Below, piece by piece: positions 13,659 to 23,463 of a stretch of DNA of 31,809 nt (the stretch's first letter is position 1; each line of letters starts with the position of its first letter). Source of the DNA: Spirochaetaceae bacterium (lineage in GTDB: Bacteria; Spirochaetota; Spirochaetia; Treponematales; Breznakiellaceae). A model generated the notes under the pieces. The model did not search any database. It worked only from the letters and a program-made list of their open reading frames with translations, and was not told the origin of the DNA. The stretch spans positions 1 through 31,809 of the forward strand of contig JAIRPU010000029.1 in the NCBI GenBank assembly GCA_031256815.1, read 5' to 3'. Both the position numbers and the translations under genes were made by a program.

Positions 13659-13823
13659 GTAATGTTTATTGGGTTTTGGGCGCATTTTTGCCGGTTTAAA
13701 TCCTGGCCGGATGATTTGGAATCAAAAAAATAAAGTGGAACCGGACGCGGATAGGGCAGTTATGCAAAATATGCCGCCTGATATAAAATTTCTATTGGTC
13801 GTTGACACGGTTTCTGCAAAAAC

Positions 13824-13852: not shown

Positions 13853-13922
13853 GTCAGTTATCCTTTCAATTCGATGGTAAACTGGTATTGCGGCGCAAAA
13901 TAAAGCCGCGAAGGAGAATATT

Positions 13923-14912
13923 ATGCTGAACAGGCGGGAATTGGTACAGAAAGTTCTGCGGAACGAAAGCGCGGAACGGGTGCCTGCCGGATTTTGGTTC
14001 CACTTTATTGAAAATCCAGAAGGAGCAGACGCTCTTAAAAATCCTGATTTTTTTGCGGCGAACATTGCGGGACACAGAAAGTTTTACACAGATTTTAAGC
14101 CGGATTTTGTAAAGATAATGAGCGACGGGTTCTTTATCTATCCTAACGAGGTATTTTTGACGGCAAAAACACCGTCCGATTTTAACCGGGTAAAGCCATT
14201 GGGCAAAAATCACCCGTGGGTGGAAAAACAGGCGGAACTTGTGAGCAAGGTAACTTCGATTTTTAAGGGCGAAGTTATGAGTTTTTACAATCTTTTCGCG
14301 CCGGCAACCTTGTTCAAGATTCTGCACCCCGGAGACCCCGCAACCGCGCGTGTGCTTGCGGGACTTATCAACGAAGACAAGCGCGCCGCGCGAAACGCGC
14401 TTAATGTTGTTGCAGAAGATATAGCGCAGGTTGCGCGGCGGGTAATAAGCGAGGGCGGCGCGGACGGCATCTATTACAGCACGCAGGATGCAGCCGGACT
14501 GAACGGCGCGGCGCGGGACGAGGCAGTGCGCCCTTCGGACGAGGCGGTGCTTAAGGCGGCAGGCGAGCTTAGCAAATTCAACATACTGCACATTTGCGGT
14601 TACGAGGGGCATCGCAACGAACTGGCGCGTTACGCCGACTATCCTGCGCAGATTTTTAACTGGGCGGCTGCAGTGGAAGGCGTTACGCCTGGCGAAGGCA
14701 AAAAGCTTTTTGGCGGGAAGCCTGTAATCGGTGGTTTTGGAAACACAAAAAACGATGTGTTGTATAAAGGCAGCCGAGAGGAAGTAGAGGCGGAAACCGC
14801 GAAAATTCTTGCCGAAGCCGGGCGCACCGGGCTGATTCTGGGGGCGGACTGCACTGTGCCTTCAGACATCAATTACGAGCGCCTTGAATGGGTGCGTTCG
14901 GCAGGCTTTTAA
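13923..14912 (+). CDS. uroporphyrinogen decarboxylase (URO-D)/MtaA-CmuA family protein
   Basis: RVPAGFW.HF, PDFVKIM.DG, ADGIYYS, ILHICG and ILGADC.VP. This is the divergent URO-D-like type; true HemE activity is not supported. Confidence 0.85.
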   Translation: MLNRRELVQKVLRNESAERVPAGFWFHFIENPEGADALKNPDFFAANIAGHRKFYTDFKPDFVKIMSDGFFIYPNEVFLTAKTPSDFNRVKPLGKNHPWVEKQAELVSKVTSIFKGEVMSFYNLFAPATLFKILHPGDPATARVLAGLINEDKRAARNALNVVAEDIAQVARRVISEGGADGIYYSTQDAAGLNGAARDEAVRPSDEAVLKAAGELSKFNILHICGYEGHRNELARYADYPAQIFNWAAAVEGVTPGEGKKLFGGKPVIGGFGNTKNDVLYKGSREEVEAETAKILAEAGRTGLILGADCTVPSDINYERLEWVRSAGF

Positions 14913-15110
14913 GCGCCCGGGCCTGCATGGACGGCCGCCGGCTGGCCACCGCGCAGACCACTGCCAGCCGGCCGGTCACCGCACAGGCCGGCCCCCGCGC
15001 GTATCGCGCAGTCCGCCGCCAGCCGTCACACCGCACAGACGCTGGCTGGCCGCGCGTATCGCGGTGACCACCGCACAGGCCGGCCTTAACCGGCAGTCCG
15101 CGAAAAATCG
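14913..15110. repeat. GC-rich mosaic of short repeated modules between convergent genes
   Basis: CACCGCRCAG at 14947, 14977, 15029 and 15069 (CACCGCACAGGCCGGCC exact at 14977 and 15069); CCGCGCGTATCGCG at 14995 and 15050. Confidence 0.85.
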
Positions 15111-20047: not shown

Positions 20048-20130
20048 ACTAATAATATGCAGAAGTTTAACCAAAAAGTTAAGCCGCCAGTCTCTGCGCG
20101 CAGTCAGAGGCGGTTAAACCCTTGAAACGT

Positions 20131-20226
20131 CTGCCGCGGGCAGCCTGCCGCGGACAGCCTGCATTTCGCGCCGTGGGCAGCCGCAGGCAGTCTCCGCCAG
20201 CCCCGCGCCAACCGATTAGCCGGCGG
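20131..20226 (+). repeat. direct repeat copy 1 (left of the GT2 gene)
   Basis: CTGCCGCGGRCAGC x2 (20131-58), then CTGCATTTCGCGCCG...CAGCCGCAGG.AGTCTCCGCCAGCCCCGCGCCAACCGATTAGCC; homologous to 21518-21649. Confidence 0.9.
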
Positions 20227-20249
20227 CAGGCGCTTTCTTAACAAAACTG

Positions 20250-20280
20250 TTGACGGGGGGGGGGGGGTAAATGTTACGCT
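20250..20280 (+). promoter_or_regulatory. sigma70-type promoter with a G13 homopolymer in the spacer
   Basis: TTGACG (20250-55), G-run 20255-20267, TGn-TACGCT (20272-80); present spacer is 19 bp. Confidence 0.65.
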
Positions 20281-20299
20281 AAAAGGAAACGCTGCCTGC

Positions 20300-21085
20300 A
20301 TGAAATTATGCGCAGCAGAGTTTAACACTATTAAAAATGGACGGTTTATTATGGTCAGTTTTGTGATGCTTACATGGAACAGAAAACAGTTTGTTGAAAA
20401 AATGTTTTCTTCATTTTATAAATCCAAAAGCGAAAAATATAATTATGAATTTTTAATTATTGATAACGGCTCAATTGATGGAACGGCATCATTGTTAAAA
20501 GAAGCAGAAAAAAATGACCCGCATATTAAGATATGGTATAATAAAAAAAATAAATCATTAAATGAATATAAAAAACTTTTTAACAGAAGCAAAGGAGATT
20601 ATATAATAATTATTGATGATGATGTTATTGAGTTTCCGAAAGATTTTGATAAAATAATGGTTGATTTTATCAATGTATTTTATGATTTTGGATTTATTGC
20701 ATTGGATGTAATACAAAATGAATTTACAAACGGAGCAAAACCGGAATTAAAATTTTATAAAGATATTTTAAAGAACGGGCTTACAATAAGTGAAGGGCCG
20801 GCAGGAGGCTGGTGTTCGATATTTAGAAAAACTGATTACAAAAAAATAAAATTCAAAATGGCCGGTAAAAGACTTGATATGAAAAATGGTGAAGACGGCG
20901 TATTGTGCTACCTGTTTGAGAATATTCTTGGACTAAAACAAGGGCTAACAAAAGGAATAAAATGTTTTCATGCGTGCGGCCCCTGGTATTCAAAAGAGTT
21001 TGGATATTTAGACCGTGATATACAAAAGTATAAAGCTTCCGGTCTCGATAATTTTGTGGAATTATACAATAAATACAAAGCATAA
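20300..21085 (+). CDS. glycosyltransferase family 2 (GT-A fold)
   Basis: VSFVMLTWNR, FLIIDNGSIDGT and SKGDYIIIIDDD (DxD); visibly AT-rich. Start is ATG 20300 or 20351. Confidence 0.9.
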   Translation: MKLCAAEFNTIKNGRFIMVSFVMLTWNRKQFVEKMFSSFYKSKSEKYNYEFLIIDNGSIDGTASLLKEAEKNDPHIKIWYNKKNKSLNEYKKLFNRSKGDYIIIIDDDVIEFPKDFDKIMVDFINVFYDFGFIALDVIQNEFTNGAKPELKFYKDILKNGLTISEGPAGGWCSIFRKTDYKKIKFKMAGKRLDMKNGEDGVLCYLFENILGLKQGLTKGIKCFHACGPWYSKEFGYLDRDIQKYKASGLDNFVELYNKYKA

Positions 21086-21228
21086 CAAGGCAAAACTCCG
21101 GCTGGCAATCGGAAAAAGAAGACTGGTTTTGATATTGCATTTTATTTGGAAACAAAGGCGGCTGCAGACACTCGCGCAAGCGATTGAAGCGGAATTTGCA
21201 AGCGAAGCAAAGCAAATTGTAGCGGAAA

Positions 21229-21482
21229 GCGCGGTTTTTGCCGGAGGCGACCGCGCTTCGCGCGGCCTTATCGCCAGACACGGCCTGCGCCTTATCGCCG
21301 GCCCGCGGCCTGCGCGTTGCGCAGGCCGCGTAACAACGGCCGCCACACCGCAGACGCGGTGTGGCGGCGTACGGGCTGGCGAAACCGCACGCGGTTTCGC
21401 CAGCTTGCCGGTAGAGGCCGCCCGCAACGCCGTTTCGCGGGCGGCCTCTACCGCAGCGCTTCTGCCTCCGGCACAAATGCGC
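21229..21482. other. multi-hairpin GC-rich element (five internal hairpins plus closing stem)
   Basis: Stems at 21251-65, 21304-30, 21339-68, 21375-404 and 21409-53; 21239-48 is the perfect reverse complement of 21464-73. Confidence 0.8.
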
Positions 21483-21517
21483 CCAAAATACCATAAATAC
21501 ATATACCCTGATGATTG

Positions 21518-21649
21518 CTGCCGCGGACAGCCTGCATTTCGCGCCGCCGGCAGACGCGGACAGCCGCAGGTAGTCTCCGCCAGCCCCGCGCCAACCGATT
21601 AGCCTGCGGCAGTCTCCACCAGCCCCCGCGCCAGCCGATTAGCCGGCGG
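21518..21649 (+). repeat. direct repeat copy 2 (right of the GT2 gene), with a duplicated ~39-bp sub-module
   Basis: Matches 20145-20226. The sub-module AGTCTCC.CCAGCCCC(C)GCGCCA.CCGATTAGCC occurs twice here and once in copy 1. Confidence 0.9.
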
Positions 21650-21663
21650 ACTCAAGAAGCCGC

Positions 21664-21693
21664 TTGACAAAAAAATTGGACTGCGTGTATCAT
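21664..21693 (+). promoter_or_regulatory. sigma70 promoter of the ABC operon
   Basis: TTGACA (21664-69), 18 bp, TATCAT (21688-93). Confidence 0.65.
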
Positions 21694-21849
21694 AATAATG
21701 CGCTGATGAATCGCGCATTCCACCCTCGAACAGGGTTTTACCATTCTTTTATTAACTATTCCATGACGGAATAAACACGGAGATGAACTCCCAAAAACGG
21801 GCATTGCGCCCATAAAAAGCCATGCCGGCGGCGTGGCGAAGGAGTTTAT

Positions 21850-23463
21850 ATGTTTATTTATCTTAGAAGCATTTTAACCGCAAGATGCATTTTTGCACTG
21901 GCGGCCGCGTTGGGCATGAGTTTGAGTTTCGGCTCGTGCGCAAAAAAAAGCGCCGGAACAGGGGCGCCAGACCAGCTGATACTGGCTGTAGGCGGAGAAC
22001 CAGACGAAGGTTTTGACCCCTGTACCGGCTGGGGACGTTACGGTTCACCTCTCTTTCAAAGCACACTGCTTGAATTTGACAAGGACATGAATTTTTCTTA
22101 TGACCTTGCAGAAGACTATTCGGTAAGCGCCAACGGGCTCGTGTGGACTTTTCGTATCCGCAGAGATGCGAAGTTTACCGATGGCACGAATGTTAACGCC
22201 CGTGATGTGGCATTCACCTACAACACGGCAAAACAAACCGACAGCGAAGTTGACCTTACCCGTATGAAAGAAGCCAGAGCAGTCAATGATACAACCGTTG
22301 AATTTGTGCTGAATACCCCTATGTCCGCCTTCCCGTATATCGCGGTAACTCTCGGTATTGTTCCAGAAAATATATACACGCAGAATCCGCAGGCCTACGG
22401 ACAAAAGCCGGTTGGCTCCGGCCCCTACAAGTTTGTGCAGTGGGACAAGGGCCAGCAGCTCATTGTTGAACGCAACGATGATTATTACGGGCAAATGCCC
22501 GCCTTTAAACGGCTTGTCCTGCTTTTCTACGACACCGATGCGGCGCTTGCCTCGGTTTTGTCAGGAGAGGCGGATATAGCGATGACGGTTCCGGCGCTGG
22601 TGCGCGACATACCCGGCTATACCCTGCTCCGCTGTTTAAGCGTTGATAACAGGGGCGTAAGCTTTCCCGCAACAAAAAGCGGTACAAAAAACGCCGATGG
22701 GCTTCCCGTTGGGAACGATGTAACCAGCGACATTGCGATTCGCAAGGCGCTTATCTACGGAATTGACCGGGATGCCATTGTAAACGATGCCCTGCGCGGT
22801 TACGGCAGACGCGCCGATTCAGCCTGCGATAACCTGCCCTGGTGGAATCCGCAAACCCGTATTAGCGACAAAGATGCCGATGGCCAAAAAAAGGCGCTTG
22901 ACGCGGCAGGCTGGATTGAAGGCAGCGGCGGTATTCGCGAAAAAAATGGCCTGCGCGCCTCATTCGAGCTTATGTATCCCGCAAACGACAGTCTTCGCCA
23001 GGCTATAGCGCTGGAGTTTGCACGCCAGGCACGGGCGCTCGGCATTGAGGTTAAACCACTTGGAGGAAGCTGGGACGACATTGGCAGGCGTATGTACGAA
23101 ACACCGGTAGAGTTCGGCTGGGGCGCTCATAATCCCATGGAAATATACAACCTCTACTACGGCAAATACGCCACCGACGGGTATAACAATCTTACCAACA
23201 TGGTAAATCCCGCCGTAGACCGCTACATGGATGCTGCCCTTGCCGCGCTCAGCTACGAAGAGGCGATAAAAAACTGGCGGCTTGCCCAATGGGACGGCGT
23301 AACCGGTTTTTCAAGCCTGGGGGACGCGACCTGGTGCTGGCTGGTAGACATCGACCACCTGTACTATGTCCGCTCAAATCTTGATACGGGGAATCAGCGT
23401 ATTCATCCGCACGGCCATGGCTTCCCGATTATATCGAATATCAAAGAATGGAAGCGCAAGTGA
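21850..23463 (+). CDS. ABC transporter substrate-binding lipoprotein, family 5 (NikA/DppA/OppA-like)
   Basis: Lipobox FGSC; WTFRIR.D.KFTDG, PVGSGPYKF and IRKAL.YGIDR; C-terminal IHPHGHG; AAGGAG RBS. Confidence 0.92.
   Translation: MFIYLRSILTARCIFALAAALGMSLSFGSCAKKSAGTGAPDQLILAVGGEPDEGFDPCTGWGRYGSPLFQSTLLEFDKDMNFSYDLAEDYSVSANGLVWTFRIRRDAKFTDGTNVNARDVAFTYNTAKQTDSEVDLTRMKEARAVNDTTVEFVLNTPMSAFPYIAVTLGIVPENIYTQNPQAYGQKPVGSGPYKFVQWDKGQQLIVERNDDYYGQMPAFKRLVLLFYDTDAALASVLSGEADIAMTVPALVRDIPGYTLLRCLSVDNRGVSFPATKSGTKNADGLPVGNDVTSDIAIRKALIYGIDRDAIVNDALRGYGRRADSACDNLPWWNPQTRISDKDADGQKKALDAAGWIEGSGGIREKNGLRASFELMYPANDSLRQAIALEFARQARALGIEVKPLGGSWDDIGRRMYETPVEFGWGAHNPMEIYNLYYGKYATDGYNNLTNMVNPAVDRYMDAALAALSYEEAIKNWRLAQWDGVTGFSSLGDATWCWLVDIDHLYYVRSNLDTGNQRIHPHGHGFPIISNIKEWKRK

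Follow-up and report, generated by a model that had tools for sequence, protein, structure and literature searches.

The window is the whole 31,809-nt stretch of DNA that was analysed, contig C139 of a metagenome-assembled genome (MAG) of a Spirochaetaceae bacterium (2.02 Mb in 185 contigs, 84% complete, 45% GC). It carries a gene for a GT2 glycosyltransferase, and a repeat element containing an array of GC-rich hairpins (21229-21482) begins on the same strand 16-88 nt after the GT2 stop codon. The GT2 gene is very AT-rich (GC 23-35%). Gene and element are bracketed by two direct repeats of about 85 nt (20146-20225 and 21516-21607, ~85-90% identical), each followed by a sigma-70-like promoter. 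Judged by its sequence, the bracketed segment has the appearance of an inserted cassette or of a local duplication. A tract of 13 G residues (20255-20267), which shares bases with a TTGACG -35-like hexamer and lies 33 nt upstream of the GT2 start, might mediate phase variation of a surface-glycan gene by strand slippage.

The array was described in an earlier note as five GC-rich hairpins closed by a basal stem, and all five hairpins are present:

21251-65: hairpin 1, 6 bp
21304-15/21319-30: hairpin 2, 12 bp, 100% complementary
21339-51/21356-68: hairpin 3, 13 bp, 100% complementary
21375-88/21391-404: hairpin 4, 14 bp, 100% complementary
21409-25/21437-53: hairpin 5, 17 bp, 100% complementary

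The enclosing pair, 21239-48 with 21464-73, is likewise exact over 10 bp and extends imperfectly to 26 nt (77%). When both strands were folded as RNA and compared with shuffled controls, each was far beyond chance: the 254 nt reached -183.5 kcal/mol on the plus strand (z = -11.1) and -188.6 kcal/mol on the minus strand (z = -10.4), with 0/200 shuffles as good in either case. Because the two strands fold equally and the stems are purely Watson-Crick, this was a first hint of a palindrome array at the level of DNA and not of an RNA made from one strand. Two regularities that had been pointed out in the array fared differently. The monotonic rise in stem length is true of the window copy but peculiar to it, as other copies differ in the order and number of modules. 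The ending of the apical arms in GC/GC holds genome-wide, in 210 of 347 GC-rich hairpins, 184 of which end in CGC (53% of the 347).

What had been read as one self-contained fold at 21229-21482 belongs to a larger unit, extending over about 21101/21130-21505. The array is probably an enlargement of P3, the third arm, in one copy of an intergenic, non-coding repeat that is dispersed in the genome. The parts of this repeat are as follows (contig numbers refer to this MAG):

21101-21172, plus strand: left extension, a degenerate copy of a ~75-nt module, aligned with copies on C166, C62 and C132
21174-21178, plus strand: 5' strand (GCGCA) of P1, the closing helix of a three-way junction, from the RNAalifold consensus
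21180-21232, plus strand: P2, a hairpin of Flavo-1 type (RF01705, 30.6 bits) that has two purine-rich internal loops and an apical stem that varies
21235-21248, plus strand: 5' strand of P3, including the basal-stem arm 21239-48; 7/9 P3 pairs change on both sides across genomes
21249-21463, plus strand: insert in the P3 loop, palindromic modules a-f, which are perfect inverted repeats
21464-21477, plus strand: 3' strand of P3, with one mismatch (C21474) against the family consensus
21478-21482, plus strand: 3' strand of P1 (TGCGC), within the invariant right-end block
21483-21505, plus strand: right-tail remnant, aligned with C29, C132 and C62; coverage by other copies stops at ~21505
13674-13700, minus strand: isolated right-end remnant belonging to a further copy, placed 19 nt before a sigma-70-like promoter (TTGACT, 17 nt, TATTAT)

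Other copies cover the region from about 21173 to 21505. The best copies in the genome have a left extension of ~75 nt and a right tail of ~65 nt, and their ends are inverted repeats of ~15-20 bp, the left module beginning with one of them. Such a pair bounds C132:7885-8217, and weaker versions bound the copies on C166, C62 and C153. In the window, homology of the left extension is clear from about 21130, its terminal-repeat part having decayed, and the right tail lacks its last ~45 nt, including its terminal inverted repeat. These terminal repeats occur in few copies only, and family members in other genera mostly lack them. A different left extension, with two more hairpins, is found in about half of the copies, as is also seen upstream of cores in other genera. 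The insert in P3 contains, besides its palindromes, two 11-nt direct repeats (21265-75 and 21289-99). A coding reading of the element was rejected, since ORFs overlapping it match no Pfam family and the lengths of the elements fall into all three classes modulo 3.

P3 is formed by 21235-48 with 21464-77, and the basal stem of the earlier note is therefore P3. The pairing at its heart is real, but its outermost 5 bp (21229-33 with 21478-82), although present in the single-sequence fold, compete with two other pairings. One is the base of P2, a helix that covaries in relatives; the other is the invariant closing helix, 21174-78 with 21478-82. Moreover, the outer 5 bp cannot form in the commoner subfamily of the repeat, where this segment is altered.

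The earlier note had left room for the stretch being single-copy, but 158 BLAST matches of the 254 nt were found in this MAG. The 78-nt left arm (21173-21250) has 33 near-full copies of 92-99% identity, all with the same start base, the right-end block occurs ~57 times, and a covariance model of the core gave 41 matches. In this genome, that of a spirochaete from the termite gut, some 40-60 copies lie scattered. Cores were enriched at the ends of contigs, with 21/41 lying less than 500 nt from an end (9% expected, p = 7e-12), and 170/347 of the GC-rich hairpins were equally close. This excess means that the repeats break the assembly and that true counts are higher. Recognising such repeats should therefore aid both assembly and annotation and avoid spurious ORF calls, half of the copies being at contig ends. 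Beyond about -350/+650 the flanks are unique at every copy, and thus no gene is carried by the repeat.

Across the bacterial family, the covariance model detected the core in 84/151 sampled genomes and 47/66 genera, with 148, 142, 98, 52 and 21 copies in five relatives. Two single-contig genomes are among those listed without a match to the core. An exact-pattern scan also located the left arm in Spirochaetaceae bacterium Nm470_bin15 and in Treponema sp. Pc512_bin78 and Pc512_bin50. The repeat is homogeneous within a genome, divergent between genomes and patchily distributed in the family. With up to about 150 copies in 2-3 Mb, it appears to be among the most abundant repeats of termite-gut treponemes.

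The core measures ~100 nt and comprises P1 (GCGC/GCGC), P2 (the Flavo-1 hairpin) and P3 (a GC-rich hairpin in which the sequence is free). In other genera of the same family the element occurs in a minimal form of 85-120 nt, in which two invariant blocks, at the 5' and 3' ends, flank first a hairpin whose loops are conserved and whose apex varies, and then a second one whose sequence is free. Eighteen minimal elements from 11 genomes were aligned for the analysis of covariation, and the RNAalifold consensus consisted of three helices. In this consensus 99.4% of cells pair and 9/20 pairs change on both sides. The covariation score was 0.350 vs 0.105 in shuffles, with 0/500 shuffles reaching it, and slid controls scored 0.01-0.11. 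Two basal pairs of P2 show full compensatory changes and seven pairs of P3 covary, while P1 (4-5 bp) is invariant; as P1 never varies, covariation neither supports nor contradicts it. Covariation among homologues had been proposed as a check on the fold of the hairpin array. P2 and P3 do covary, but the conserved, covarying part lies mostly outside 21229-21482.

Among 46 distinct elements the pairs of P3 numbered 450 Watson-Crick, 12 G:U (from very few independent events) and 0 A:C. The occurrence of G:U without A:C suggests that the plus strand may be the folded form. Identity in the variable apex of P2 is 86% within genomes vs 57% between genomes, and some compensatory variants were seen within genomes. 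This pattern of identity is, as far as sequences can tell, that of lineage-specific amplification from few masters, and it is also compatible with selection on the fold for the element's own propagation. A second subfamily was observed in the Spirochaetaceae MAG Nm470_bin15 (L010:323-467, L013:5117-5283, L019:7283-7412). In it the invariant blocks at the 5' and 3' ends are retained, as is P3, and P2 is a different one, devoid of the loop blocks of Flavo-1; the frame of the junction could thus predate the Flavo-1 arm or be the more general of the two.

A search against Rfam returned no family at its gathering score inside 21229-21482, but a sub-threshold match to Flavo-1 (RF01705) adjoins the interval. 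It lies at 21169-21240, and its 30.6 bits compare with a gathering score of 42. The genome contains 39 Flavo-1 matches, one of which is at or above the gathering score (43.2), and copies in two other genomes score 43.5 and 42.7. The conserved blocks of P2 are, on both strands, identical to those of the Rfam consensus and of the 2010 seed alignment, while the apical stems differ between genomes with complementarity kept. That seed alignment contains the same conserved blocks, including the 5' block, and has a member from Treponema denticola (Weinberg et al. 2010, PMC2864571). For Flavo-1 these authors record only the taxonomic range (PMC2864571), and the literature gives no function for it. The segment 21180-21232 thus resembles Flavo-1 in its blocks, its hairpin, its two purine-rich internal loops and its variable apex. 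However, the published model consists of one arm only, whereas here the arm stands within a three-way junction, alongside a second hairpin that covaries and a closing helix that does not vary. A further difference is that here it belongs to a high-copy dispersed repeat, the second hairpin of which is palindrome-expanded in this genome. An orphan Rfam motif, to which no function has been assigned since 2010, is in this way tied to a larger three-armed element.

P3 may here be no more than a bare hairpin or reach about 550 nt, giving elements of 109 to 659 nt overall. The shortest (C29:5270-5378, 109 nt) is without palindromic modules and the longest is C156:21866-22524. Modules a-f of the window recur in the same order in the copy on C167 and as a subset on C153. 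In the copies on C166 and C75 their order and orientation are exactly reversed, with the arms of P3 unchanged. A reversed filling between unchanged arms indicates a presumptive DNA inversion or insertion in two directions. In general, the filling of P3 is reshuffled, duplicated and inverted between copies. Other cargo was also observed in P3. Some copies (e.g. C156:13044-13526 and C58:317-655) contain short tandem GGATT-like repeats followed by an AT-rich hairpin, and a module of ~120 nt is common to copies on C30, C156, C89 and C132.

The palindromes themselves are numerous. Perfect GC-rich hairpins whose stems have 9 bp or more number 347 in the genome, about 60 times as many as in local shuffles, and these show a sharp peak at stems of 13 bp and loops mostly of 3 nt. 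Families among them include hairpins 2, 3 and 4 of the window, with the loops in both orientations, and 70 clusters of 2-5 perfect hairpins occur in the genome. With respect to the cores, 108 hairpins are near one, 116 are undecidable, being near contig ends, and 123 are clearly elsewhere. Given these 123, the palindromes are a population of their own, which also settles in P3. In the largest family (70 copies), 45 copies have perfect outer stems despite at least 12 variants of the arms, and mismatches are not enriched in G:T. Its core palindrome is present 42 times here vs 0-4 times in each of 150 relatives; this palindrome family, the one that was checked, is on these counts amplified in this lineage only. 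Some palindromes resemble inverted duplications of the element's own right arm, which would be compatible with fold-back copying.

Several known systems share features with this element. Like the REP, BIME and REPIN sequences of proteobacteria, it presents short GC-rich intergenic palindromes that are highly repeated and form mosaic clusters of variable number and orientation, and, as in BIMEs, these clusters lie between genes. Unlike REP sequences, the stems here are perfect and of 13 bp, and the arms start with CC or GC, with no GTAG-type head. In contrast to BIMEs, many of the palindromes are found inside the loop of a larger conserved element and do not stand alone. The BOX elements of Streptococcus pneumoniae are dispersed and intergenic, have no coding capacity and no known mobiliser, and are built from two conserved end modules, left and right, that pair around internal modules of one kind (boxB), the number of which varies. 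The element is similarly modular, with paired conserved ends around a variable filling. However, the filling is here one of mixed palindromes, the ends belong to the Flavo-1 junction, and there is no sequence similarity to BOX. The Correia/NEMIS elements of Neisseria are MITEs, small and non-coding; the best copies here, unlike the decayed window copy, may resemble them in their terminal inverted repeats, and copies are often found just upstream of promoters. In contrast to MITEs, neither a target duplication nor a parent insertion sequence was seen here, in a MAG that is 84% complete. In yeast mitochondria, mobile GC clusters are GC-rich palindromic units that multiply in AT-richer spacers and nest side by side. 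This is an analogy only, from another domain of life and with no sequence relation.

The ends of complete copies were inspected for target-site duplications and no consistent one was seen. A palindromic 11-mer beside the right end was considered as a general boundary or target and rejected, as it is present in only 6/34 elements of other genera. An empty site was sought in three ways. Same-genus genomes gave no DNA-level match to the flanking genes, the pepF orthologues in three relatives are not syntenic and have no element beside them, and exact words from the GT2 3' end matched none of the metagenome contigs scanned. No insertion polymorphism could be shown from the loci compared. The genes located between paired elements in a related MAG code for a solute-binding protein and a T6SS ImpA-domain protein, and no transposases were found among them.

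We consider it likely that the element is a selfish structured repeat of the REP/BIME/BOX type, the window containing a palindrome-expanded copy of a Flavo-1-type three-way junction. The core would spread as selfish DNA, with a trans-acting factor recognising, in a single-stranded form specific to one strand, the conserved junction together with the P2 loops. P3 would be the tolerant arm, so that palindromes may accumulate there, and recombination or template switching between the inverted arms could flip and resize its content. Perfect arms, with variants changed on both sides, might arise when one arm is copied off the other, by fold-back synthesis or intra-hairpin repair; loss of imperfect copies is an alternative source. 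The array would then have no function specific to the GT2/opp locus. On this account a lineage-specific burst of perfect palindromes in a tolerant arm may offer a compact natural system in which the origin, inversion and persistence of palindromes in bacterial DNA can be followed. A bolder version, which we hold to be rather doubtful, makes the Flavo-1-type junction the recognition module of an undescribed strand-specific mobilisation system, common to Bacteroidota and Spirochaetota and other than Y1, TnpB, IS110, DDE or RT. P3 would in that case be a landing pad, colonised in this lineage by a new class of self-renewing perfect palindromes via fold-back copying of arms.

The strongest competitor to a selfish repeat is that the core, perhaps with its expanded arm, is a multi-copy structured RNA of use to the host, serving as a transcript-end stabiliser, as an insulator or terminator between operons, or as a protein-sponging small RNA. 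The hairpins of P3 would then confer resistance to nucleases, as REP arrays do in E. coli mRNAs. The covariation of P2 and P3 speaks for such a role, yet it is equally expected if the fold serves the element's own propagation. The restriction of wobble pairs in P3 to the plus strand (the 12 G:U vs 0 A:C, from few independent events) also favours an RNA. A further argument is position. In this genome, 42/56 right ends point towards the start of a co-oriented gene (p = 2e-4, with crude ORF calls), and a sigma-70-like promoter usually lies between the two; this bias hints at selection or targeting near promoters. However, at 30 loci in five other genomes the orientation was random, with a split of 14:14, and the bias is therefore treated as local to this genome. 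Many copies have a run of 5-6 T directly after the P2 hairpin, but the run is not conserved across genera, and no terminator-like site was scored at 20050-21900 in the window. Reports on transcription point both ways: Flavo-1 is among the unannotated transcribed regions in a Leptospira preprint (10.1101/2023.03.29.534852), but in the transcriptome of Flavobacterium psychrophilum its matches are sense, antisense or outside transcribed regions (PMC9723704). The copy number, which ranges from 0 to about 150 among related genomes, also argues against a host function. On balance, a host-useful RNA appears unlikely. Two other properties of the surroundings were looked at. Orientation of the elements has no clear link to the GC skew of their contigs (18:10), and a compositional 'mutation shadow' beside the cores was rejected, as composition and skews of the flanks are ordinary in this genome.

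Among the three readings offered by the earlier note, that of a fold-back or REPIN-like mobile element came closest, in that the stretch is part of a high-copy dispersed repeat with half of its copies at contig ends; its REPIN part fails. According to that part, the palindromes would be REP/REPIN elements moved by a RAYT (a Y1 HUH transposase), as in Pseudomonas and E. coli. Their shortness, GC-richness, intergenic clustering and presence in both orientations are in keeping with this, as is a faint likeness of one pair of hairpins to naRNA4/REP325 (RF02564; 21338-21405, minus strand, 28.9 bits vs a gathering score of 59.5). Against it, the stems are perfect and carry no conserved GTAG-like 5' tetranucleotide, and no RAYT was found that co-occurs with the elements. 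No Y1_Tnp match exceeded the cut-off in the 84%-complete MAG, and the sole weak match was discarded as a false positive, since it lies over the genes for thymidylate kinase and the acetolactate synthase small subunit. Genes for TnpB, IS110, DDE_Tnp_1 and RT were likewise not found in this MAG. MAG bins often lose insertion sequences, and the missing mobilising enzyme is therefore weak evidence. Y1 genes were present in 85/151 genomes of the family. Ten or more core copies are present in 29 genomes, of which 19 have a Y1 gene and 10 do not, and the presence of Y1 does not track the copy number of the element across the family. Movement of these palindromes by a RAYT is thus very improbable.

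Equally improbable is that the array acts at this locus, whatever its origin, as a 3'-UTR stabiliser or terminator of the GT2 mRNA, which was another of the three readings. The location shortly after the GT2 stop codon on the same strand favours it, as does the lack of any other terminator-like site between GT2 and the opp promoter. However, no T run follows any hairpin of the window on either strand, and the same array is found at unrelated loci, also inverted. The reading is conceivable for this one copy but leaves the family unexplained, the left side facing the end of a co-oriented gene in only 10/17 copies here.

The remaining reading, an undescribed gene for a structured ncRNA of ~250 nt that stands on its own and does not extend beyond 21229-21482, would account for the extreme folding z-scores and for the want of an Rfam family at gathering score inside the interval, but it can be virtually discounted, because the interval is multi-copy and mosaic, sister copies lack its content or have it replaced or inverted, a palindrome family within it is lineage-specific, both strands fold equally with perfect Watson-Crick stems, palindrome mismatches are not G:T-enriched and the main conserved arm is the known Flavo-1. 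Read as a selfish repeat, the element explains this striking structure without a new RNA gene.

Two further sites deserve mention. At L051:1689-1762 of genome G012, a copy of the core lies ~100 nt upstream of a tRNA gene. In the window itself, a further cluster of GC-rich repeated modules occupies an intergenic spacer at 14940-15110; near it, long ORFs are listed across 13866-14912 on both strands and overlap each other.
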